DNA of 64,000 bases from Escherichia phage vB_EcoM-Ro121c4YLVW. The notes beneath the pieces are model-generated. The model saw only the letters and a program-made list of their open reading frames with translations, was not told the DNA's origin and did not search any database. The stretch is taken from sequence record NC_052654.1. One strand, given 5' to 3'. Positions within the stretch are counted from its first letter, which is position 1. Each line of letters begins with the position of its first letter. The position numbers and the translations under genes were made by a program. Positions 16,836 to 64,000 of this stretch are shown here, piece after piece.

Positions 16836-18614
16836 GTGTCGCACATTATAACTAAATATGGATTTGATGTTGATCTTAGCAAGGAAGGGCATACAGGTTG
16901 TCCGCGCTGCATGAAAAATGGCAAGGATCGCTCTCGTAATAACCTGATGGTTTATGGATTAGATTCTAATGGAGAGCATAAAGGTGCTAAGTGCTTTGCG
17001 TGTGAATACACTATTCCTAGCGTAGAATGGTTACGAGAAAATGGTGAAGTTTTAGAAGAAGAGGAGGAGATTGTGGGTTCGGAATTTAATAAACAGATTC
17101 ATCGTAAAATTGTTCAAGAAACATCAACCAACCCACGTGGTTATCGAGGCATTAAAGAAAAAGTTTCATCTTTCTATGGTGTTCGTTATGAATACCGTCA
17201 GGAAGGGGATCAGATGGTAGTAGAAAGTTGTTTATATCCGACTACCATCGGTAAAGAATTGGTTGGTTTTAAGCGTCGTATTCATCCTAAAGATTTCAGT
17301 AAACCTATTGGTCAAGTAGGTAAAGATGTAGATCTTTTTGGACAAATTCGTTTTGCAGACCGTTCTCATACTGTGGTAATTACAGGTGGTGAACACGATG
17401 CTCTGGCAGCTTATCAAATGCTGTCTGAAAACTTGGACAACAAATATGAACTTCCAGCAGTAGTTAGTGGCACAACTGGTGAAACCAGTATGTATAAACA
17501 AGTTCAGGCACAATATCCTTTCTTTGAAAAATTTAAGAAGATTATTGTTTGCATGGATAATGACAAAGCAGGTAATGAGGCATTTGAAAATATTGTTAAG
17601 GTGCTACCTCGTAACAAAGTCTACCGTATGCAGATGGATCTTAAGGATGCCAATCAGTATCTGGAAGAAGGTCGTGCAAAGGATTTCGTAAAGGCTTTTT
17701 GGAGTGCTCGTCTATACACCCCAGCAGGTGTTTATGCTTCTAATGTCTTGTATGAAGCTGCATTAGAATGCTTGGAATCCAAGATGATTACCTTGCCTCC
17801 TTTTATGCGTGTTGCTGCAAATATGCTGGGTGGTGGTTTAGTAGAGGAAGAGATTACAGTCATCCTAGCAAAGACCAGTATCGGTAAAACTTTGATGGTG
17901 AACGAGATCACCAAACATATTATTGTTGCGCACCCAGAACATACCCTAGGTATTCTGTCATTGGAAGCAACTTATAAGAAATATTCTCGTAACCTGTTGT
18001 CCTCGTTCCTGCATATTCCTCTACATAGGAAAACACCGGAAGAGAAATTTCAAATCTTGGAAGAGAATAAAGAAAAAATCCTAGATTTTTACGAAAGAGA
18101 AGATGGATCACCACGTTTTTATGTGTGTGATGATCGTGGAGCAGATGTGGAGTCTATCAAAGAAAAAGTTTTGGAGATGATCATCTATTTTGGAGTAACA
18201 ATTCTTGTTATCGACCCTTATTCTGATTTGCTTTCTGGTATGGATGTTCAAGCCCAAGAAGAGTTAGCAACATGGTTGAAGCGTATCATGAAAGAGTATG
18301 CTATAACTATTATCGTCATCTCACACGTTAAGAAATCGGCTAATGGTGGCAATGAACACTTAACAGAGGACGATGCAATGGGTAGTAGTTTCTTGGCTAA
18401 AGGTGCTGGTATTACCTTGGCTTTGGAACGAGATAAAGCCGCTGAAGACCCTGTAGAACGCAATACGACTCATTGCTTTATCCTAAAAAACCGTGAGTTC
18501 TCGGAGACTGGTCCGGCAGGGCAGTTTTACTATGACATTAGAACTGCAACTCTGCATGACAAAGAGCAGTATTTCAACAACCCTGCTAATTTGCCTACGG
18601 ATAGCAACTATTAA
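16836..18614 (+). CDS. Bifunctional DNA primase-helicase (T7 gp4-like)
   Basis: GTG start after caggagaa. Zn finger CPRC...CFAC, TOPRIM region VITGGEHDALAAYQ...CMDNDKAGNEA, Walker A AKTSIGKT, Walker B LVIDPYSD. Confidence 0.9.
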   Translation: MSHIITKYGFDVDLSKEGHTGCPRCMKNGKDRSRNNLMVYGLDSNGEHKGAKCFACEYTIPSVEWLRENGEVLEEEEEIVGSEFNKQIHRKIVQETSTNPRGYRGIKEKVSSFYGVRYEYRQEGDQMVVESCLYPTTIGKELVGFKRRIHPKDFSKPIGQVGKDVDLFGQIRFADRSHTVVITGGEHDALAAYQMLSENLDNKYELPAVVSGTTGETSMYKQVQAQYPFFEKFKKIIVCMDNDKAGNEAFENIVKVLPRNKVYRMQMDLKDANQYLEEGRAKDFVKAFWSARLYTPAGVYASNVLYEAALECLESKMITLPPFMRVAANMLGGGLVEEEITVILAKTSIGKTLMVNEITKHIIVAHPEHTLGILSLEATYKKYSRNLLSSFLHIPLHRKTPEEKFQILEENKEKILDFYEREDGSPRFYVCDDRGADVESIKEKVLEMIIYFGVTILVIDPYSDLLSGMDVQAQEELATWLKRIMKEYAITIIVISHVKKSANGGNEHLTEDDAMGSSFLAKGAGITLALERDKAAEDPVERNTTHCFILKNREFSETGPAGQFYYDIRTATLHDKEQYFNNPANLPTDSNY

Positions 18615-19147: not shown

Positions 19148-19942
19148 TTGAGCAAGTTGAACACACTTGATCAATATTACACTAACCCCGCTTATGCGGG
19201 GTTCTTATGTGATAAGATCAAAGAAATTTTTGGAGAGGAAGCTAACTACGTAGAACCATCTGCGGGAGAAGGAGCTTTCTCTTCTTGTTTTAAAAACATA
19301 ACTTCTTTTGATATTGACCCTAAGTTTGAAGATTGTATTGAGGCAGATTTTTTAGCTCAATCTGTTGAGTCTGTTGGTAGCGTAACTGCTTTTGTCGGTA
19401 ATCCTCCATTTGGAAAAAATGCTAGTCTTGCCATTAAATTCTTTAACCATTGTGCTGAAATGCTGGATAACGAAGGTGGTATTTGTTTTATCTTGCCTCG
19501 CACATTTCAAAAAATCTTTTTTGCACACAAACTAAATCCCCATATGCATCTTCTTTACGAAGAAGAATGTCCAAAAGGATCTTTTATTCTTCATGGAGAA
19601 CCTTGGGATGTTCCTTGTGTATTCCAGGTATGGATTAAACGCAACGAGAAGCGTTCTCCCGTTGTTTTAGGAGAGAATCGACTATTCGTATTAGGTAACA
19701 GTAAAGACTACGATATAGCTGTTAGGAGAGCGGGAGCAAGTGCAGGTAGAGTGTTATCAGAAGAAGATTCTTTATCTGAAGCATCTACCTATTTTTTAAA
19801 AGCCTTGACTTCTGATCTTAAAACGCGTATCATTGAGGCTTACCCGTTACTTAAAGCTGAAGCTAGTAAAACTGCGGGAGTAAGAAGTTTAAGTTTAAAA
19901 GAACTTCAGTGGGTTCTGGAGAACATTAGAAAGGAGGAATAG
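19148..19942 (+). CDS. DNA N6-adenine methyltransferase
   Basis: TTG start after aaggagg. Motif I VEPSAGEGAF and motif IV GNPPFGKN (NPPF). Confidence 0.8.
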   Translation: MSKLNTLDQYYTNPAYAGFLCDKIKEIFGEEANYVEPSAGEGAFSSCFKNITSFDIDPKFEDCIEADFLAQSVESVGSVTAFVGNPPFGKNASLAIKFFNHCAEMLDNEGGICFILPRTFQKIFFAHKLNPHMHLLYEEECPKGSFILHGEPWDVPCVFQVWIKRNEKRSPVVLGENRLFVLGNSKDYDIAVRRAGASAGRVLSEEDSLSEASTYFLKALTSDLKTRIIEAYPLLKAEASKTAGVRSLSLKELQWVLENIRKEE

Positions 19943-22900
19943 TGAGTAAGTTTACATGGGATATTGAAGCAAACGGATTGTTGAATAATGACACTATTGA
20001 TTATTTAGCTAGTCCTTATCGTCTCAAAGACACATTTCAAATGCACTGTATTGTCTTAGAGAACCATGAAACAGGAGAAATAGTAGCTTTCCACGATGGC
20101 CCTAAATACATCTTTGATGGGCGTCCTTATGAAGAGTCAGATGGTAAATACACATATGTTCTTAAAGAGTATGTGGCGCAAGATTACACACATTTTCAAC
20201 TAAAAGATTTCCCAGACTTTATTAATCATGAAGGTTATTTTAAAGATAAGCCTGAATATCTGGTTGAAATGGCTGTGGCTCACAACGGTATCAACTACGA
20301 CTGGTTGGCTACAAAACTGTTTTATGGATTAGATTACAGTGTTAAATATAATACGTGGGGCAAAAATAAGGTAAAACTTATTGACTCCTTGATTTTGAGT
20401 AAAGTGTTAAACCCAGATCGAAAGATTGAGGGCAAATCAGGACATAGCTTGGCAGCACTTTCTCGAAAAGCAGGTGGTGATGTAAAAATAGATTTCCGTA
20501 AAGAGATTCCAGAAGAAGATCGATTTAAGACTTTTGCTGCGGATATGCTTTATTACTGTATCTATGACAACAAAGCCAATACGAGCGTATATAATTACCT
20601 TATGGAAGAATGGGGCGATTATGATAAATGGGAAGGTCCATTTGAACTTGAACAACGTGTAGCAGACATTATTACACGCCAGGAACACCGTGGGTTTGCT
20701 TTTAACATGAAGCAAGCAGAAGAGAACCTTGCTTTTTTGGATGCAGAAATGGAGCGTCTTCGTTTACTCGTTGAGCCTATTTTGCCACCTAAACCAGCAA
20801 CAAAAGGTTATCTTAAGGCTTTTATTCCACCTAAGTTGCAAATTAAAAAGAACTTAGAGCCAACTAACCATATGATCAATTTTGCTAAGAAACATGATGG
20901 TCATTTGGAAGAGAGGGATGGCGATTGGTGGTTAGTTATGTTGGGGAAAGAGTGGAAACTGCCAGTTGCAGCAGATGAGCCTCTATGTGATCCTAACATC
21001 CCTGCAACATTGAACGATACAACCCATATTAAAAACTGGCTCGTAGGATTAGGTTGGGTACCGTCTGAATATAAAGATAAAGACTTGACGCTTAAATCTG
21101 GCACCAAAATTAAAAAGAGCGAGGAAGAACTTCAGAAAGGTATTAGAGCTTACGTTGAGCAAACTCTATCTTCTAATTTTTGTCAGGATCGTTGTGATCA
21201 TCTGGAGTGCACACCGGAAACTTTGGAAAGGAAGATTCAAGAGCGTATAGCAAAAGGTAAAGGTCGCGGTCTTAAAGTATTGACTAACCCATGTTTTACC
21301 AAAGGTCAGGAAAAAGAAATTTGTCCTAACCTGCAAGCTTTGGGTGAGAAATTTCCTTATGCTACACAGATTGTAGAATACTTAACGTATAAGCATCGTA
21401 GGAACTCTATTTTAGGTGGCGGTGCTGATTGGGAAGAAGATGAAGAAGATCAAGAATACGATAAAGGTTTCTTAGCCGCAGTAAGGGCGGATGGGCGTAT
21501 TCCTACACCAGCCGCTACATGTGATGCTGCAACCTCTCGTATGAAACATAGATCTGTAGCTAATATTCCTCGTGTCACATCTTTGTTTGGATGGGAGATG
21601 CGTAACTTGTTTGGTGTAGAAGTTCCTAAATACTTCCAGATCGGTTATGACTTCGACTCTTTGGAAGCAAAGATTGAGTCGCATTACTGTGTGCCGATGG
21701 ATGCTCAAGCTTTGACTCGTAAAGGTTGGGTAGGATATCACGACCTGAAGGAAGGGGATGAGATTTTAGGGTACAATGCTGAAACAGGTATGAAAGAATG
21801 GACTAAAGTAAAAGGTAAGGTCTTCTATAAAAATAGTAAGACGTTTGAGATTAAAGGGAAATCACACACTTACCGTGCAACAGCAGATCACCGTTGGTAT
21901 GTTAATACCCGTAGTAAAGGGAATACTTATGTGCCTAAAGTCAGAACAACTGCCGAGCTTTGCACAGGAGATAATATTATTTGTAATGCTCCATTTAACA
22001 TGGAACAAGATCAGGTAAATAGTTTAACTTCTGTTCAACAAGGTAAATGGGATGTTCCGTGGGTAGAGCGTGTAGTTAATATGTCTCATGCCGAGCGTGT
22101 AGCTTTCTTGGAAGGTTTCTTGATTGCAGATGGTTACTGGCATGAACATAAACAAAAACCTGTTTGGCGTTGGGCGCAGAACCCAGGTGAACTTTTTGAA
22201 GCAGCTTTAACTGCCTCGTACCTGGTGCATGGAGGCAATATCTCTGTAGCTTTCAATACAAAAGAGCAGAAAGTAAAAGTGGCAACATTGACTAACCGCT
22301 CTCACATTCCTGTTCAAAGTTTGACTATTGAAGAGTGGGGTGTAGAGGATGTTTGGTGTCCACAAACAGAACTTGGTACGTGGGTCATGCGTCAGAAAGA
22401 CTGCATTACCATCACAGGAAACTGTTGGCGCTACGAACCGGAGCCTCATGAATACTGTAACGCTCTCTTGTTAGAGAAGCCTAACGATGTTCATACCATG
22501 ATGGCAAAACGTATTACAGATACTATTGGGCGTAAATTTGAACGTAGTCCGGCGAAATCTGTTAAATACGGGATCACTTATGGTGCACAAGCAGACAAGG
22601 TTGCTAAAACAATTGGTAGCGATAAATACACAGGGCAACTGGTGTTCGATGCTTTCTGGGAAGCTGCATTCCCACTGGCGCGTCTTAAAGAACGTTTAAA
22701 CGATTTCTGGGTTAAGACTGGTAAACAGTATGTTTTGGGTATTGACGGTCGTAAGGTTCCTACTCGTTCTGCTCACGCGATTCTTAACTCTCTGTTCCAA
22801 AGTGGTGGGGTTATCTGTGCTAAACGTGCAATGGTTATTTATGACGACATGATCGAAGAAGAAGGGCTAAGTGTTGACTTCTTTAAAGATGACTGGAAGA

Positions 22901-23274
22901 ATAAAGACTTCGTGCAACAAATGATTGCATATCACGATGAAGCCCAGCTTGAAGTTTCTCGTAACCTTGTAGAATTTAAATGGTTTTCACCTGAATCATT
23001 AGGTTGGAAGAAAGTAGACGATCCTGAAGAACAAAAGAAAATTGATAAAGAATGCCTTGCTAAAGTTGAAGAATGGAAACATAATAAGGAAAAAGAGACA
23101 GGGCAAATTTGGGCTAACATTCATGAATCTCCCAAAGGTGGATGGTTTACAGCCTATAGTCGGGCAGGTGAACTTGCTGCTTTAGCTGTTACTAAGGCTG
23201 GAGAATTTTACAATCTTAATGTTCAGCTTACTGCCGGATATGATGTGGGTAACTCCTGGGCGTCCTGTCACTAG
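19942..23274 (+). CDS. Family A DNA polymerase with 3'-5' exonuclease domain, interrupted by an intein
   Basis: Exo I FTWDIEANGL, motif A GYDFDSLEAKIESHY, motif B RSPAKSVKYGITYGA, motif C AYHDEAQLEV. The extein junction HY|CWRYEPEPHEY is colinear with T7 DNAP LAHF-MARFDNGEY. Confidence 0.9.
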   Translation: MSKFTWDIEANGLLNNDTIDYLASPYRLKDTFQMHCIVLENHETGEIVAFHDGPKYIFDGRPYEESDGKYTYVLKEYVAQDYTHFQLKDFPDFINHEGYFKDKPEYLVEMAVAHNGINYDWLATKLFYGLDYSVKYNTWGKNKVKLIDSLILSKVLNPDRKIEGKSGHSLAALSRKAGGDVKIDFRKEIPEEDRFKTFAADMLYYCIYDNKANTSVYNYLMEEWGDYDKWEGPFELEQRVADIITRQEHRGFAFNMKQAEENLAFLDAEMERLRLLVEPILPPKPATKGYLKAFIPPKLQIKKNLEPTNHMINFAKKHDGHLEERDGDWWLVMLGKEWKLPVAADEPLCDPNIPATLNDTTHIKNWLVGLGWVPSEYKDKDLTLKSGTKIKKSEEELQKGIRAYVEQTLSSNFCQDRCDHLECTPETLERKIQERIAKGKGRGLKVLTNPCFTKGQEKEICPNLQALGEKFPYATQIVEYLTYKHRRNSILGGGADWEEDEEDQEYDKGFLAAVRADGRIPTPAATCDAATSRMKHRSVANIPRVTSLFGWEMRNLFGVEVPKYFQIGYDFDSLEAKIESHYCVPMDAQALTRKGWVGYHDLKEGDEILGYNAETGMKEWTKVKGKVFYKNSKTFEIKGKSHTYRATADHRWYVNTRSKGNTYVPKVRTTAELCTGDNIICNAPFNMEQDQVNSLTSVQQGKWDVPWVERVVNMSHAERVAFLEGFLIADGYWHEHKQKPVWRWAQNPGELFEAALTASYLVHGGNISVAFNTKEQKVKVATLTNRSHIPVQSLTIEEWGVEDVWCPQTELGTWVMRQKDCITITGNCWRYEPEPHEYCNALLLEKPNDVHTMMAKRITDTIGRKFERSPAKSVKYGITYGAQADKVAKTIGSDKYTGQLVFDAFWEAAFPLARLKERLNDFWVKTGKQYVLGIDGRKVPTRSAHAILNSLFQSGGVICAKRAMVIYDDMIEEEGLSVDFFKDDWKNKDFVQQMIAYHDEAQLEVSRNLVEFKWFSPESLGWKKVDDPEEQKKIDKECLAKVEEWKHNKEKETGQIWANIHESPKGGWFTAYSRAGELAALAVTKAGEFYNLNVQLTAGYDVGNSWASCH
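21688..22422 (+). mobile_element. Intein (245 aa) with a LAGLIDADG-type motif, inserted just after polymerase motif A
   Basis: It starts at Cys (CVPMDAQALTRKGW.., Hint block A). Block B is TADH, the endonuclease-like motif is FLEGFLIADGYW, and it ends ..DCITITGN followed by a +1 Cys. Removing it restores a contiguous motif A to motif B region. Confidence 0.85.
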
Positions 23275-60510: not shown

Positions 60511-62076
60511 TTAATTCGACAGGTTTTGTGCTGAAGGATCTAAAGCAGAAACAGTATCAGATGTTCCAGTTCCCGCTGTAGCTAAACCATCTCCTGATCG
60601 TGAAGTTTTATCAGGCATATAGTTATCCATGAATTCAAAGAATTTCTCTTTATTGGCAACAATATCGTCAGGGATGCGATATTCAAAACCAATTTTTTCA
60701 AGGAACTCGTTAATAACTTCTGGGGTTAAAGGTATTGCACCAGAGGCTACCAACTGCTGAATAGCTTTAGCATTTACTTCAATATCAGGATCACCCATTT
60801 CACCACTGACAAACTTAGGCATATCTTCATCAGAAAGGAAGATATTGTTTAGTCGTAGTGTTTGAGGGATCAGTTGAGAGTTTATAGCTTCTACAACAAT
60901 ATCTACATCTCGCTCAATAAAATGAGACAATAGTGTTTGTTTGTTGTCAGAAAGCGCAAAACTTCCTGCATCACCATCACCCATAATCAACACACCCGCA
61001 CCAAAGCGGTTATAAATATCTAGCTTGCGTTGTTTGATTAGTGCTTGAGTGTCAAACTGTTTACCCGTGCCATCAACACCTTGGAATACAAGATCGTATT
61101 GACGCATCACTGTGCCTTCATAAACGTCTGAAGGCAATACCATGTAGGCTTGCTCACCAGAGTGCAGGTTAGCGATGTTGGCTTGGAGAACTCGAAGAGA
61201 TTGTGCTTCATCCCCAGCAGGATCTAAAGATGCCCTGTTTAGAATGTCACTTGGAACCTTAAGAACTGGCATACCGCCTAAATCTTTAGATACCCCAATA
61301 ACCTCAAATTCCTGAATAAGAGATTTTTCACGCCAGCTACGATATACAGCTAAAAGCGGACTAACTCCTAGTGGGTTATTCTCTGTAATGTTACTACCAA
61401 CAAATAAAACTTTACTGAAAGGAATTTCTTTAATACCAGTTTCTAAAGTTGTATTACCTGGAGCTAACATCGTATTGGTGATATTCTGGTTAACAGATAG
61501 AATAGAACGTCCGTCTGCCGAATATGTAAAAGGTTGAGCCATGTGAAGAGTGTCTTGTGGTCTAAAAGCCAGTTTGGTCAATCGCCAATACCCAAAGTAA
61601 GGACTTTTAGGATCTTCATCCAACTCATAAACTTTCTCTGCGAATGCAAAACCATATTGCTTATATGTCAAAAGTGATCTAACATATTGACGTAGAGGGG
61701 CTTGCATATTGCGTAACATGTAATCAATAAACTTAGCAGCTTTTCTTGACTTTGCCGAGTTTACATTGTATTTTATCTTGAAATCAAAGAATGCTCTATC
61801 TACAAAGATATATGTAGCGTCAAGAGCAGTAGCTACATCAGGGTCTTCACCCATCTCTTTAAAAGTGCGAATACATTCTGGGAAACGAGTCTCATAAGGT
61901 TGCATGAAATTCGTAAATGCTTTGATTGAGTTTAATCCGATCGTTCCTATTTCAGGTGACAGGAGTAACGTTTTCTCTTTCTCTGCCTCTTTTGTTGGAG
62001 AGAGAGCAGCTTTATTTGCAGCACCTTTGTCCCAGTATTCTGACTTTTTAGTGTACGTTCTTTTTCCTGTTGACAC
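60511..62076 (-). CDS. Portal protein
   Basis: 521 aa with a GTG start, directly downstream of the terminase large subunit and upstream of the protease. Confidence 0.8.
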   Translation of the reverse strand: MSTGKRTYTKKSEYWDKGAANKAALSPTKEAEKEKTLLLSPEIGTIGLNSIKAFTNFMQPYETRFPECIRTFKEMGEDPDVATALDATYIFVDRAFFDFKIKYNVNSAKSRKAAKFIDYMLRNMQAPLRQYVRSLLTYKQYGFAFAEKVYELDEDPKSPYFGYWRLTKLAFRPQDTLHMAQPFTYSADGRSILSVNQNITNTMLAPGNTTLETGIKEIPFSKVLFVGSNITENNPLGVSPLLAVYRSWREKSLIQEFEVIGVSKDLGGMPVLKVPSDILNRASLDPAGDEAQSLRVLQANIANLHSGEQAYMVLPSDVYEGTVMRQYDLVFQGVDGTGKQFDTQALIKQRKLDIYNRFGAGVLIMGDGDAGSFALSDNKQTLLSHFIERDVDIVVEAINSQLIPQTLRLNNIFLSDEDMPKFVSGEMGDPDIEVNAKAIQQLVASGAIPLTPEVINEFLEKIGFEYRIPDDIVANKEKFFEFMDNYMPDKTSRSGDGLATAGTGTSDTVSALDPSAQNLSN

Positions 62077-62145
62077 TTGTTCCTCCAGTCAGGTATAAAA
62101 TCGTTAAGGCAAGGCTGTATTATATACAACCTCACCTATCTAGTT

Positions 62146-62174
62146 ATAATACACTTTAAAGTGACTTTTGTCAA
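62146..62174 (-). promoter_or_regulatory. Sigma70-like promoter upstream of the portal gene
   Basis: Minus strand reads TTGACA (62174-62169), 17 nt spacer, TATTAT (62151-62146). Confidence 0.5.
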
Positions 62175-62177
62175 CAA

Positions 62178-64000
62178 TTATCTTTTACGGACACTATACG
62201 GTTGGTGAAATCCGCTGTTCATTCTACTGTATCCTGTAGGAGCATTTGTTGTTGCAGGGATAGCTACTGCTTTGAAAGTATTCTCTTTTGACAGAGTATT
62301 GAAACAAGAAGCAGCAGCATCGGGAATGTCATCTTTAATAGTGGCTGTAGATCTTTCACCATTGAAAGATTCCAATTCTTTATAAAAGTGGGTTAAAGTT
62401 TCCACATTAGGGAAAGAATCTTCAACAATATAAACAAAACCGTTTTGACACGCACTACTAAAAGGCATAAAACGCTGAAGCTTTTTCTTGTTGCCTGGCA
62501 TAGCATCTGGTTTAACAACAAAACCCTCTAGAATAAGTTTCTTTGCAGACTCTGTATATTCTATTGTCCCAGCACCAGATGGGTCTTTAGGAAGAACTAC
62601 TGTAACTTCTGGTCCATCAATCTTACATTGATTTAGAATCAGGTTATCCCTTTCCCCAGGTAATCTTCGAAACCTTCCGAAAATTTTACTTTTCTCATCC
62701 ACAGCATCATAATCATAGTCACCAAAGATGTAGATATTACCATCTTGGTCTTTACCCATTTTGACAGATGTTGTATAGTCTGGATAACGATAAGTTTCTG
62801 TAGGAACTGAAACAGCTTTATCCCATGCTCGCATTAGTTTAAGATTATTAGGAACATCTTTATAAGATATCTTATGCAACCATTCACGTTGGAAGAAAGA
62901 CTCTTTCTGTATACGTGCAAACCAACAGCCGTCCAAGAGTTGTGCTCTTTTGATTGCTGTTTGTGATTTAAGCTGTGCTAAATAATTAGGGTTAAGCCTA
63001 ATCAATTCTGGGTTATCAAATATTGTCCCACCGATAAATACGAAAGTTTGTGGTTCAATAACAACTGTCTCCCCTGTATTAGGGTTTTCCATGAAACAGT
63101 TTTCTGGATATTTTTCTTTCAGTTCTTCAGGTGTGTCAGCAAAAACAGGTTCATCGTTAACAATGATGAAATATTTTTGTTTACCACACATATCTTCTCT
63201 AGGATAACCGCCCTCATCGAGATAAGGTAGTACCCAATTCAAAACCCAACTATCTGCATCGGGGTTACATGTGCACAACATGAAGCTTGTTTCTGATTCT
63301 GAACGCATACGTCCCAGAAGATAGAGCATTTCATACTGTGTGAAGTGGGTTAACTCGTCAAAACCTACCATTGAATACTGTGTACCCTGATGGTTTGTTT
63401 CTGCGGTTACGTTATCGTTTTCCAAATGGTCAAATTTGAGGGTTCCGCCGCCAGTGGCTTCAAAAATGATATCCATTGTACTTTCTTTTACGTGTGGTTG
63501 TAAAGGAAGATACAAACGTTTTGCTTCTGTAAACAGACCACCTGGTTTACGGTGAGCAGTGGTGTTCTTACGGAAAAGTATTCCACCAAACAAAGGGTCT
63601 TTGTAGGCGTATTTTAAAGCTTTCAGCAATAGCAGACGAGACTTGCCGCTATTCCCAGTAACGAAGCAGTGATCGCCACGTCTAAAGACAATATAGCTGC
63701 TTGGAGTCTCAAAACAATATTTCTTATCATCTGTTGAAATAACCTCGTGTATTTTTAAGTAAGTGCTCTTTTTACCAGGTATGTTAAAAGGAACACGTTT
63801 ACCGAATGGATTTTCTACATAACCTTGCAGGGGTTTTCCTATTTGCTGTAATGCAATAAGATCTCCTACAAGAATCTCGAAATGTTTCTTTGATTTCTTT
63901 TTCTTATAGAATACAAAACGGTGTTCCATACTAAGTTCTTGGAACAATCCTACACCATTTGTTATTCTGTATAGATTATCTCCATTTAAATCGTATTCTA
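62178..64000 (-). CDS. Terminase large subunit (5' end outside window)
   Basis: P-loop ..SGKSRLLLL, Walker B MVGFDELTHF, coupling motif CTCNPD, and a C-terminal nuclease half. The frame stays open upstream of the track's TTG (63947) to the window edge. Confidence 0.9.
   Translation of the reverse strand, partial: EYDLNGDNLYRITNGVGLFQELSMEHRFVFYKKKKSKKHFEILVGDLIALQQIGKPLQGYVENPFGKRVPFNIPGKKSTYLKIHEVISTDDKKYCFETPSSYIVFRRGDHCFVTGNSGKSRLLLLKALKYAYKDPLFGGILFRKNTTAHRKPGGLFTEAKRLYLPLQPHVKESTMDIIFEATGGGTLKFDHLENDNVTAETNHQGTQYSMVGFDELTHFTQYEMLYLLGRMRSESETSFMLCTCNPDADSWVLNWVLPYLDEGGYPREDMCGKQKYFIIVNDEPVFADTPEELKEKYPENCFMENPNTGETVVIEPQTFVFIGGTIFDNPELIRLNPNYLAQLKSQTAIKRAQLLDGCWFARIQKESFFQREWLHKISYKDVPNNLKLMRAWDKAVSVPTETYRYPDYTTSVKMGKDQDGNIYIFGDYDYDAVDEKSKIFGRFRRLPGERDNLILNQCKIDGPEVTVVLPKDPSGAGTIEYTESAKKLILEGFVVKPDAMPGNKKKLQRFMPFSSACQNGFVYIVEDSFPNVETLTHFYKELESFNGERSTATIKDDIPDAAASCFNTLSKENTFKAVAIPATTNAPTGYSRMNSGFHQPYSVRKR
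63651..64000 (-). mobile_element. Possible C-terminal part of an intein inserted in the TerL P-loop (hypothesis)
   Basis: ..KYCFETPSSYIVFRRGDHCFVTGN|SGKS aligns without gaps to the polymerase intein end ..VWCPQTELGTWVMRQKDCITITGN|C, with 8 of 24 residues identical including the terminal TGN. A Ser is at +1 and the GKS of Walker A follows directly. Confidence 0.4.

Follow-up and report, generated by a model that had tools for sequence, protein, structure and literature searches.

The window analysed here is a stretch of 64,000 nucleotides from Escherichia phage vB_EcoM-Ro121c4YLVW (NC_052654.1), a member of the genus Phapecoctavirus. It carries the ORF of a family A DNA polymerase precursor, which starts with GTG, overlaps by 1 nt the stop codon of the upstream methyltransferase gene and is interrupted between catalytic motifs A and B, within the polymerase fold, by an intein. 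The features of the locus, in order of their start, are:

19942..23274, positive strand: family A DNA polymerase precursor ORF, 1110 aa, predicted 127.6 kDa.
19942..21687, positive strand: N-extein, 582 aa, with the 3'-5' exonuclease region and the N-terminal part of the polymerase, ending in ...DFDSLEAKIESHY.
21568..21687, positive strand: 5' flank with locally raised, nearly all synonymous divergence between polymerase genes otherwise 97-100% identical.
21649..21672, positive strand: polymerase motif A, D570-F-D-S-L-E-A-K577, aligned with T7 D475-ASGLELR.
21688..22422, positive strand: intein, 245 aa, Cys1 to Asn245, predicted 28.0 kDa (from empty alleles, family profile and fold).
21688..21726, positive strand: block A, CVPMDAQALTRKG, with Cys1 at 21688-21690.
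21880..21897, positive strand: block B, T65(B:7)-A-D-H68(B:10)-R69(B:11)-W70(B:12) (from profile alignment to 6zgq and clade conservation).
22045..22308, positive strand: single LAGLIDADG-type half-domain, aa ~120-207, alpha-beta-beta-alpha-beta-beta (from AF2 secondary structure).
22105..22134, positive strand: sole LAGLIDADG motif, FLEGFLIADG, aa 140-149, with the putative catalytic Asp148.
22348..22395, positive strand: block F, DVWCPQTELGTWVMRQ, with Cys224 (22357-22359) at F:4.
22402..22425, positive strand: block G, C-I-T-I-T243-G244-N245, and Cys+1 (22423-22425); Thr at G:5, Gly at G:6, Asn at G:7.
22423..23274, positive strand: C-extein, 283 aa (from profile match and T7 gp5 alignment).
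22423..22651, positive strand: 3' flank spanning both intein sites, with mosaic synonymous divergence, two haplotypes and variable breakpoints.
22549-22584, positive strand: motif B, PAKSVKYGITYG, in the C-extein.
22572..22573, positive strand: empty second intein site, "site b", between G877 and I878 within motif B; filled in nieznany-type phages.
22927-22947, positive strand: motif C, AYHDEAQ, in the C-extein.

The ORF matched the Pfam DNA_pol_A profile (44.5 bits; cut-off 34.3) and PHROG 17, DNA polymerase (E = 3e-106), and family A motifs A, B and C were all present, the alignment with T7 gp5 spanning DFDSLEAK, KSVKYGITYG and HDEAQ. The insert starts 5-10 residues past motif A. As the first-pass annotation had proposed, the polymerase is split just past this motif and is colinear with its T7 counterpart once the insert is excised: the spliced sequence gave with T7 gp5 residues 398-671 a single alignment of 292 columns (E = 6e-26) that runs across the junction (ESHY/CWRYEPEPHEY against LAHF/MARFDNGEY, the slash marking the junction), whereas the unspliced precursor gave two broken alignments, and colinearity returned only upon excision. 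The ten other largest ORFs in the window showed no further intein.

Translation of 21688-22422 gave 245 codons in frame, from CVPMDAQALT to DCITITGN, followed by Cys. The polymerase gene of phage ESCO13 (KX552041) is devoid of exactly these 735 bp and reads IESHY/CWRYEPEPHEY; its exteins show 23 differences in 2598 nt from those of the window. Other phages with ~99% identical polymerase genes are also without the insert, which is present or absent among near-identical genes; the site was uninterrupted in 41 of the 61 phage records that matched a 200-bp junction probe, and the insert was found at >=90% aa identity in 33 records. The 245-aa intein proposed for 21688-22422 was borne out by this exact in-frame insertion and its precise absence from ESCO13-type alleles, and the alignment with intein-less homologues suggested at that time returned near-identical polymerases that lack precisely this insert. 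The same alleles contradict the converse expectation, that the 245 aa would be retained in homologous polymerases as a conserved domain. The insert and the C-extein both open with TGT, which leaves a one-codon ambiguity in the DNA boundary; splicing chemistry favours the first-pass boundaries, Cys1...Asn245 followed by Cys+1. These three splice-junction residues are all present, and the 163 relatives (see below) keep each of them either unchanged or as a chemically similar residue. The insert exceeds chance by far, and its identity as an intein is confirmed.

Cys1, TxxH, a LAGLIDADG motif and a terminal Asn followed by Cys+1, named as hallmarks in the first-pass annotation, were all located in the translated insert. 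Cys1 takes the canonical position of the step-1 nucleophile. The block B residues T65-A-D-H68 aligned with block B of the AceL NrdHF (6zgq), NrdJ-1 and DnaX inteins (for 6zgq, TpnHkW vs SPNHRM), and Trp70, the W of the WCT triplet, aligned with AceL Met70 at B:12. Arg69 corresponds to Arg69 of AceL NrdHF, which compensates for the missing penultimate His (PMC7891396). Block F has no His at F:13, and its Cys224 falls at F:4, the place of the class 3 branch-point cysteine; this placement was derived from the 21-residue spacing to Asn, the strand in the model and the HMM alignment to the VWC of the Bethlehem gp51 intein, with which block F aligned column for column. No solved intein was matched in sequence by the C-terminal 49 aa alone or by a profile of blocks F and G built from 30 sequences. 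At G:6, the penultimate His that is common, not obligatory, in inteins is replaced by Gly244.

The AF2 model of the insert (pLDDT 79.4, pTM 0.79) had 48 Foldseek matches in the PDB at E <= 1e-3, all 48 to inteins, BIL or Hedgehog HINT domains, the best being TliVMA (1.2e-9). The class 1 inteins PI-SceI, TliVMA and PhoVMA were the top whole-model matches (E = 1e-9 to 1e-7); they share a HINT splicing domain into which a LAGLIDADG-fold domain is inserted, but they have Asp at F:4, a penultimate His and, in 360-450 aa, two LAGLIDADG motifs (C and E) plus extra DNA-recognition regions, as compared with one motif in 245 aa here. The best mini-intein fold match was AceL NrdHF (TM 0.76 on target). 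This intein also came out of the family profile search of the PDB (E = 1.4e-5), as did NrdJ-1 and DnaX, and single-sequence phmmer gave sub-threshold matches only, all of them inteins. Intein profile HMMs, which had been suggested as a check, gave a mixed picture: the family profile matched solved inteins, but the curated Pfam profile Intein_splicing (PF14890) stayed below its gathering score (17.5 bits, E = 0.0038, against 35.8), which is a limit of the model, not of the element. The insert had no match in NCBIfam or PHROGs.

A word-indexed protein search recovered 9 relatives only; an exhaustive profile search was needed and gave 9333 cluster representatives at E <= 1e-3. Conservation was read from 163 relatives with pairwise identity <50%. 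In this sample, which is subject to selection bias as the top matches to a profile already bearing these residues, Cys1, Thr B:7, His B:10, Cys F:4 and Asn G:7 were invariant (163/163), and Gly G:6 (162), Thr G:5 (161), Arg or Lys B:11 (156) and Trp B:12 (155) nearly so; the +1 residue was Ser in 87, Thr in 46 and Cys in 30. The clade is large and mostly phage-borne, with the signature Cys1, T-x-x-H-[R/K]-W, V-W-C and T-G-N, and its members are likewise missed by Pfam. PolA is one of its favoured hosts, at least 44 of the 163 sampled members lying in PolA-like proteins, and bacterial Pol I inteins were already on record (PMC4760082), so the first-pass remark that PolA inteins are uncommon does not hold. 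Relatives of the insert also occur in unrelated proteins (a DUF6321 protein, tape measure, portal, TerL and NrdA).

The TGN ending, described as atypical in the first pass, is indeed unusual among inteins in general but is the norm within the clade, as the counts for G:6 show. In two experimentally studied TGN inteins, Gly performs better than His at the penultimate position (PMC5050341, PMC7891396): the Bethlehem gp51 intein of Kelley et al. 2016 "splices completely" and its G316H variant needs >5 h for ~50% (PMC5050341), and AceL NrdHF, which ends in T144-G145-N146 and whose Arg69 contacts the C-scissile carbonyl, is inactive as G145H (PMC7891396). The Bethlehem gp51 ("RDF") intein (C1...TANHRV...VWC...LTGN/S) scored 50.5 bits against the clade HMM; Cys1, T-x-x-H-R, V-W-C, an L-T-G-N end, 21 residues from the block F Cys to Asn and a phage host are the features in common. 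It is a distant relative only, with 317 aa, Val at B:12, Ser+1, a metallophosphoesterase host and a larger endonuclease region that is toxic in E. coli (PMC5050341). AceL NrdHF resembles the insert in H68-R69, Cys at F:4 and T-G-N, and in having no His at F:13 or G:6; it differs in being naturally split, with Ala1 (proven class 3), Met at B:12 and Ser+1 (PMC7891396), and it has no endonuclease domain and resides in a ribonucleotide reductase-related gene. Note that in NC_009878 the useful relative is the gp51 intein: the DnaB-like gene gp61 of that record (273 aa) contains no intein, and a six-frame Cys-to-T[H/G]N scan gave nothing further.

The intein itself is already known from sister phages. 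The orthologue in PaulScherrer (Bas60), in bas60_0044 (MZ501100), has the same site, host gene and 245-aa length and 97.1% aa identity, and it is annotated as "intein-containing DNA polymerase precursor", an annotation that came through comparative genomics (PMC8594841). The same element is carried by phi92 gp159 and by SD2 (PQ821640), where it is annotated as an intein. The shared TGT codon accounts for the PaulScherrer GenBank mat_peptide being offset by +1 codon from the boundaries given here. We found no publication analysing the PaulScherrer-type intein. The present finding is accordingly of modest weight, a correct call of an intein annotated in related records. About 30 of the 33 GenBank records with the insert label the 1110-aa precursor plain DNA polymerase because standard profile libraries miss the clade; an HMM of the clade, or its signature, would fix many phage annotations.

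PaulScherrer is a Justusliebigvirus, and its extein DNA is 72-79% identical to that of the window phage with dS saturated, whereas the insert is 91.6% identical in nt, with dS 0.47. Many cultured lytic phages carry the insert at 98-100% identity. Together with the mosaic flanks, the cross-genus comparison indicates a recent horizontal transfer of the insert. The divergence of the 5' flank may be read as a footprint of recombination or co-conversion; the flank haplotypes are uncoupled from insert presence, and therefore ordinary recombination could also produce the mosaic. Phage viability and the conservation described above suggest that the insert splices. We consider it very probable that the intein of this Stephanstirmvirinae (phAPEC8/phi92-like) coliphage, lodged in its essential polymerase, is splicing-competent and recently mobile.

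The homing-endonuclease motif announced in the first pass is present, but as one motif in a half-domain, where canonical intein endonucleases have two (blocks C and E); the model contains a single alpha-beta-beta-alpha-beta-beta unit. FLEGFLIADG aligned with the second motif (block E) of a 324-aa, two-motif intein in the same gene of nieznany-type Phapecoctavirus phages (MN850598), whose first motif falls in an alignment gap. This intein belongs to the same clade (31.7% identity; Cys1, T..H.W, DVFC, LTGN/C) and lies 50 residues downstream, at KSVKYG/C-TYG. We favour the view that the half-domain would have endonuclease activity and would be the likely homing agent into empty alleles during co-infection, probably as a dimer. 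A loss of homing with splicing retained is a serious contender, although we lean against it; the half-domain would then be a non-nuclease remnant serving folding or DNA binding, and the insert would spread by ordinary homologous recombination in co-infection. Such a loss would agree with the single motif, as compared with two in the nieznany intein, with the flank haplotypes not being tied to the insert, and with natural domain loss within the clade (P0005 vs P0002). It would also agree with the target site, in which no symmetry was detected: palindromy of the empty site was not above chance in a low-power test (6/11 pairs, equalled by 1756 of 2000 shuffles). The domain-only Foldseek search points the same way, its best matches being LAGLIDADG folds at E 0.01-0.1 only, with none at E <= 1e-3 and with WhiA, a non-nuclease LAGLIDADG protein, on top. 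Pfam LAGLIDADG_3 gave the insert 12.8 bits, below 22.5.

Several observations speak against a loss of homing. The half-domain architecture dominates the clade (113/163 members, of 220-260 aa) and is kept by purifying selection as strong as that on the splicing domain, with dN/dS 0.037 in the half-domain and 0.03-0.04 in all three subdomains of the insert. Judged by column conservation, a regular-expression count being unreliable for this motif, the acidic residue at its end is Asp or Glu in 116/119 and the following Gly is present in 117/119; Lys120 and Gln164 are conserved as well. Further, compared with the exteins, the insert has only recently passed from one phage genus to another, and the toxicity of the Bethlehem gp51 endonuclease implies activity in a relative (PMC5050341). 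Along with the transfer and the purifying selection, the mosaic flanks lend indirect support to cleavage of the intein-less allele.

As for splicing, Cys1 provides the N-terminal Cys/Ser/Thr nucleophile of class 1 and is the probable first attacking cysteine. In the mechanism that we propose, an N-S acyl shift at Tyr582-Cys1 would be followed by transfer of the N-extein to Cys+1, in which the invariant Cys224 of block F would participate somehow; Asn245 would cyclise with the aid of Arg69 (B:11), not of a penultimate His, and an S-N shift would yield the 99.6-kDa polymerase (...IESHY-CWRYEPEPHEY...) and a free 28-kDa intein.

The insert also has the WCT triplet of class 3 (Trp70, Cys224 and Thr243), Cys224 being assigned by its spacing, by the model strand and by alignment to Bethlehem gp51. 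By a class 3 route, Cys224 would attack the N-scissile bond and form a block F branched thioester that passes to Cys+1, and Cys1 would be dispensable as a nucleophile; we regard this as possible but unlikely. Tori and Perler reportedly found in 2011 that WCT inteins with Ser1 or Cys1 use the class 3 route. Three such inteins were known in 2009 (PMC2807308). The whole triplet is conserved in the clade sample (Trp B:12 155/163, Cys F:4 163/163, Thr G:5 161/163), and the +1 residue is Ser or Thr in 133/163, a bias reported for class 3 (PMC5222942). The verified class 3 intein AceL NrdHF, with its shared H68-R69 and T-G-N, ranks first among solved inteins in the profile search and first among mini-inteins in fold, the class 1 inteins NrdJ-1 and DnaX scoring nearly as well by profile; for the canonical class 3 structures (Mch and Msm DnaB) the match was one of fold only. 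Against this route stands Cys1, invariant in 163/163, since class 3 inteins typically lose the N-terminal nucleophile (34/37, PMC2807308) and one operational definition of the class requires "no cysteine at the N-end" (PMC7891396). The insert has Cys+1 in place of the Ser or Thr of class 3, within which Cys+1 is known in Bvi IcmO only (PMC5222942). A Cys at F:4 also occurs in some class 1 inteins, a polyphyletic set (PMC3196547), and the studied relative, Bethlehem gp51, was handled as class 1 (PMC5050341). The WCT triplet, an equal spacing from F:4 to Asn and a proposed phage origin are shared by canonical class 3 inteins (MP-Be DnaB, Msm/Mch DnaB-1, Dra Snf2), but these have no N-terminal nucleophile, usually a penultimate His, Ser or Thr at +1 and mostly helicase-type host genes, in contrast to the Cys1, Gly G:6 and Cys+1 of the insert.

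It is quite improbable that the clade is an intermediate between the two classes that needs both Cys1 and Cys224, and the phage-borne ancestor of class 3, in which Cys1 was later lost, with the half-domain acting as a homodimer. Such an intermediate might use a thioester relay running from Cys1 via Cys224 to the +1 residue, or the class 3 route with Cys1 kept for, e.g., redox control. No description of a homodimer of two LAGLIDADG half-domain inteins was found for any intein endonuclease. The scientific value lies in the clade, not in this copy: in thousands of members an invariant Cys1 occurs alongside the WCT triplet of class 3 and a C-terminal active site devoid of His. Surveys that take "no Cys at position 1" as the definition of class 3 leave out this combination by construction. 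In a phage of E. coli that can be grown in culture, it is open to direct test with a few point mutations.

Other kinds of element were also considered. A group I intron was ruled out by the reading frame without stops, the conservation at the protein level and the HINT fold, and a BIL domain by the +1 nucleophile and the insertion in a conserved catalytic region. That the 245 aa are a lineage-specific, non-splicing domain retained in the mature polymerase has a negligible chance and was ruled out by the empty-site alleles: sub-threshold scores with curated intein profiles and the plain DNA polymerase label of most GenBank records would fit it, but it is contradicted by the exact absence from near-identical polymerases, the position between motifs A and B, the HINT fold with all splice-junction residues and the relatives in unrelated proteins.

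Site b, empty in the window phage, is the place of the nieznany-type intein. The inteins of site b and of the site occupied here (site a) were never found together in one phage (82 records, 82 places). Two adjacent, mutually exclusive intein sites in an essential gene of easily crossed phages make a convenient system for the study of homing and interference.

The insert lies in the DNA polymerase gene of a Stephanstirmvirinae myovirus (phAPEC8/phi92-like), at the following positions of the window:

19942-23274, + strand: family A DNA polymerase precursor ORF, 1110 codons (Pfam, PHROGs, T7 gp5 alignment)
21688-22422, + strand: intein insert, CVPMDAQALT...TADH...FLEGFLIADGYW...DCITITGN, then Cys (translation)

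Translation of 21688-22422 reproduced exactly the 245 residues quoted in the first-pass annotation, with Cys as the next residue. The DNA leaves the boundary uncertain by one codon because TGT begins both the insert and the C-extein, i.e., the polymerase part downstream of it. With the insert excised in silico, the polymerase aligned to T7 gp5 398-671 in one unbroken stretch (E = 6e-26) that covers motif A, the junction (ESHY/CWRYEPEPHEY vs LAHF/MARFDNGEY), motif B and motif C, whereas the unspliced precursor gave two separate alignments; the proposal of a split polymerase, colinear with that of T7 once the insert is removed, is thus borne out. Alignment with intein-less homologues, suggested as a check, gave an equally clear answer: the ESCO13 gene (KX552041) differs from that of the window at 23 of 2598 extein positions, lacks exactly 735 bp and reads ...IESHY/CWRYEPEPHEY.... 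Therefore, from such empty alleles and the T7 alignment, the 245 residues are not a conserved domain kept by homologous polymerases. An uninterrupted site occurred in 41 of the 61 records matching a 200-bp probe across the empty junction, and the insert was present in 33 records (amino acid identity >= 90%). TSP7_1, REC and AV125 were ~98-99% identical to the window over the polymerase gene. The GTG start of this gene overlaps by one base the TAG stop of an upstream N6-adenine methyltransferase ORF (19148-19942; the two codons lie within 19940-19944), which suggests translational coupling. Other neighbours are a primase-helicase (Toprim + DnaB_C), several tail-spike/fibre genes with a TSP1/Gp66 N-terminal domain, a Mu-type portal and a T4-type large terminase.

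The intein is already known from annotation of sister phages. In PaulScherrer (Bas60, MZ501100) the orthologous insert, 97.1% identical and at the same site, is labelled 'intein-containing DNA polymerase precursor' with an 'intein' mat_peptide, shifted by the ambiguous codon; SD2 (PQ821640) has the same product name. The BASEL paper used comparative annotation to identify inteins (PMC8594841), and our literature search found no paper analysing this one. Of the 33 insert-bearing GenBank records, ~30 describe the 1110-aa precursor either as hypothetical or as an ordinary DNA polymerase.

Curated profiles recognized the insert poorly: it scored 17.5 bits with Pfam Intein_splicing (cut-off 35.8) and 12.8 bits with LAGLIDADG_3 (cut-off 22.5), and NCBIfam and PHROGs scans gave no match. 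A profile of eight family members did match solved inteins (AceL NrdHF at E = 1.4e-5, followed by NrdJ-1 and Spl DnaX). An AlphaFold2 model of the insert with five flanking residues on each side (pLDDT 79.4, pTM 0.79) had 48 Foldseek matches in the PDB at E <= 1e-3, and each of the 48 is an intein, a bacterial intein-like domain or a Hedgehog HINT domain; the TliVMA intein, which carries an endonuclease, ranked first (1.2e-9), and AceL NrdHF was the best of the mini-inteins (TM 0.76 on target). When 1.84 billion cluster representatives were searched exhaustively with a profile, 9333 relatives came up at E <= 1e-3, 697 of them at E <= 1e-30. Sequence family and fold both support the original identification: the insert is a real intein, and its predicted splicing is very probable. 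Pfam, NCBIfam and PHROGs miss this mostly phage-borne clade, both the insert (21688-22422) and the relatives P0006-P0062. Scans of the large neighbouring ORFs (16836-18614, 25902-45975 and 60511-63947) revealed no intein.

The conserved residues of the clade were tabulated for the 150 top-scoring cluster representatives, pairwise < 50% identical, which gave 163 intein instances.

Residues at intein block positions (B, F, G) in 163 clade instances; some selection bias is expected in these counts because they are top hits to a profile already holding these residues
Position 1: Cys 163/163
B:7: Thr 163/163
B:10: His 163/163
B:11: Arg or Lys 156/163
B:12: Trp 155/163
F:4: Cys 163/163
G:5: Thr 161/163
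G:6 (penultimate): Gly 162/163
G:7: Asn 163/163
+1: Ser 87, Thr 46, Cys 30 (n=163)

The insert presents H68-R69-W70, C224 and T243-G244-N245, with no His after residue 206. Its ending had been called an atypical TGN; the penultimate Gly is indeed there, but with Gly in 162 of 163 relatives it is not atypical for its family. The AceL NrdHF split intein shares with the insert His68-Arg69 in block B, a Cys at F:4 (Cys124) and the T-G-N ending (Thr144-Gly145-Asn146), and is without the F:13 and G:6 histidines; its Arg69, a compensating residue, touches the C-scissile carbonyl, and G145H abolishes activity (PMC7891396). The same T-G-N ending is found in the gp51 intein of mycobacteriophage Bethlehem (from NC_009878; C1...TANHRV...EVWCLRVPNGRFFIEDGGKIHLTGN/S), which scored 50.5 bits with the clade HMM, VWC...TGN aligning column for column. 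Kelley et al. reported that Bethlehem gp51 splices completely, while G316H takes > 5 h for ~50% (PMC5050341). The family norm and these mutants therefore indicate that Gly at G:6 is optimal in this lineage and not a defect, and the peculiarity of the TGN is explained by family and published experiments.

Trp70, Cys224 and Thr243 occupy B:12, F:4 and G:5, the 'WCT' triplet, where B:12 was set by profile alignment to AceL (TpnHkW vs SPNHRM) and G:5 by definition; no residue-level match of the block F/G region to a solved structure was obtained. WCT inteins with Ser1 or Cys1 were reportedly assigned to class 3 by Tori and Perler in 2011. The triplet defines class 3, in which attack on the N-terminal junction comes from the block F cysteine instead of residue 1 (PMC2807308, PMC5222942). 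We lean slightly towards Cys1 as the first nucleophile. The class 3 route appears rather unlikely: the triplet is complete in the insert and three WCT inteins with Ser1/Cys1 were already recorded in 2009 (PMC2807308), but Cys1 is present and invariant (163/163), a +1 Cys as in the window is known from one class 3 intein only, a Cys at F:4 also occurs in a polyphyletic set of class 1 inteins (PMC3196547), and Bethlehem gp51 was handled as class 1 by Kelley et al. (PMC5050341). A relay or other arrangement for the first step takes what likelihood is left beside these two routes; both cysteines, Cys1 and Cys224 (F:4), are invariant in the clade (163/163 each).

The homing-endonuclease motif reported earlier is present as FLEGFLIADG, but only this one was found, whereas canonical intein endonucleases have a motif in block C and another in block E (PMC5050341). 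It aligned to the second motif of the two-motif nieznany relative, the first being absent. The family comprises two-motif inteins (nieznany, 324 aa), single-motif inteins (including the insert) and mini-inteins (142-163 aa). P0005 and P0002, two metagenomic DUF6321-type proteins, agree in their exteins and differ little in their splicing domains; P0005 is a natural mini-intein from which the whole LAGLIDADG half-domain is cleanly deleted (163 vs 245 aa in P0002). The model of the insert contains one alpha-beta-beta-alpha-beta-beta unit. Modelled alone (pLDDT 71), the domain had LAGLIDADG proteins as best fold matches (WhiA, I-CeuI, I-AniI, I-MsoI, bI3 maturase and one PI-SceI lobe, the latter at 2.2 Å over 75 residues), only at E 0.01-0.1. 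The half-domain form dominates the clade (113/163 instances of 220-260 aa) and is not under decay: its dN/dS between two phage genera, 0.037, equals that of the splicing domain, the Asp/Glu of the motif is kept in 116 of 119 members and the Gly in 117 of 119, and Lys120, Trp125 and Gln164 are conserved. A homodimer would be the simplest way for a half-domain to cut both strands, but the empty site showed no palindromy above chance. We regard endonuclease activity as uncertain, if a little more probable than its absence. Our literature search turned up no intein endonuclease described as having a single motif.

Presence and absence of the insert alternate among ~99% identical genes. The inserts of the window (Phapecoctavirus) and of PaulScherrer (Justusliebigvirus) share 91.6% DNA identity (dS 0.47), the exteins of the two genes 72-79% (dS 2.1 or saturated); therefore, the insert crossed genera long after the polymerases diverged, and very probably it was recently mobile. 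Phapecoctavirus polymerase genes are 97-100% identical outside the site flanks, where identity is 84-93% over ~120 bp upstream (21568-21687) and ~230 bp downstream (22423-22651). The flank changes are almost purely synonymous and form two haplotypes with phage-specific breakpoints, ESCO25 and REC being mosaics. This pattern fits repeated gene conversion around intein sites, but could also come from ordinary recombination, because haplotype does not track insert presence. The flanks of ESCO13-type empty alleles are identical to those of the insert-bearing window allele, so that these alleles could represent precise intein loss or the never-invaded parent.

A second intein site of the polymerase, site b, is only 150 bp from that of the insert (site a):

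22572/22573 (G877/I878, motif B): site b, empty in the window, 50 residues downstream of site a
L003 2501-3472: nieznany-type site-b intein, 324 aa, two LAGLIDADG motifs

Site b is filled by a related intein in nieznany (MN850598), ukendt, nepoznato, AV126, phiWec187 and others, with +1 changed Ile-to-Cys. In nieznany, identity to the window drops to 46-92% over ~300 bp 5' of site b, compared with 95-100% for the rest of the gene; this stretch resembles a tract co-converted from a diverged donor. A search of the phage collection (82 records, 82 matching places) revealed no phage with both polymerase inteins; this mutual exclusion resembles the interference between neighbouring inteins reported in haloarchaeal MCM (PMC10643990). 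Note that in the polymerase region, site-b intein included, five 'Campylobacter phage' records (MG065639, MG065645, MG065650, MG065656 and MG065689) hardly differ from E. coli Phapecoctavirus genomes, so their host label seems doubtful.

What is of interest here is a clade-wide property, the combination of Cys1, WCT, a His-less C-terminus and a single LAGLIDADG half-domain, to which the phage group of the window would offer a convenient experimental entry. The view that PolA-type inteins are uncommon does not hold for this clade: at least 44 of its 163 instances have PolA-like hosts, and bacterial Pol I inteins are on record (PMC4760082). Three further members missed by phmmer also match Pfam DNA_pol_A. 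The PolA insertions fall in three hot spots: ...S/SPNxxQ, the window's own site xxHY/[CT][WY][RK]Y, and motif B (...YA/TLYGAG, KNGxY/C..YGG). Relatives in phage databases occupy tape-measure, portal, TerL and NrdA genes as well as Pseudomonas KIL-like and Acinetobacter phage polymerases. The commonest metagenomic host is a small DUF6321 protein (42/163 instances), always interrupted at DVYP/SAYANG.
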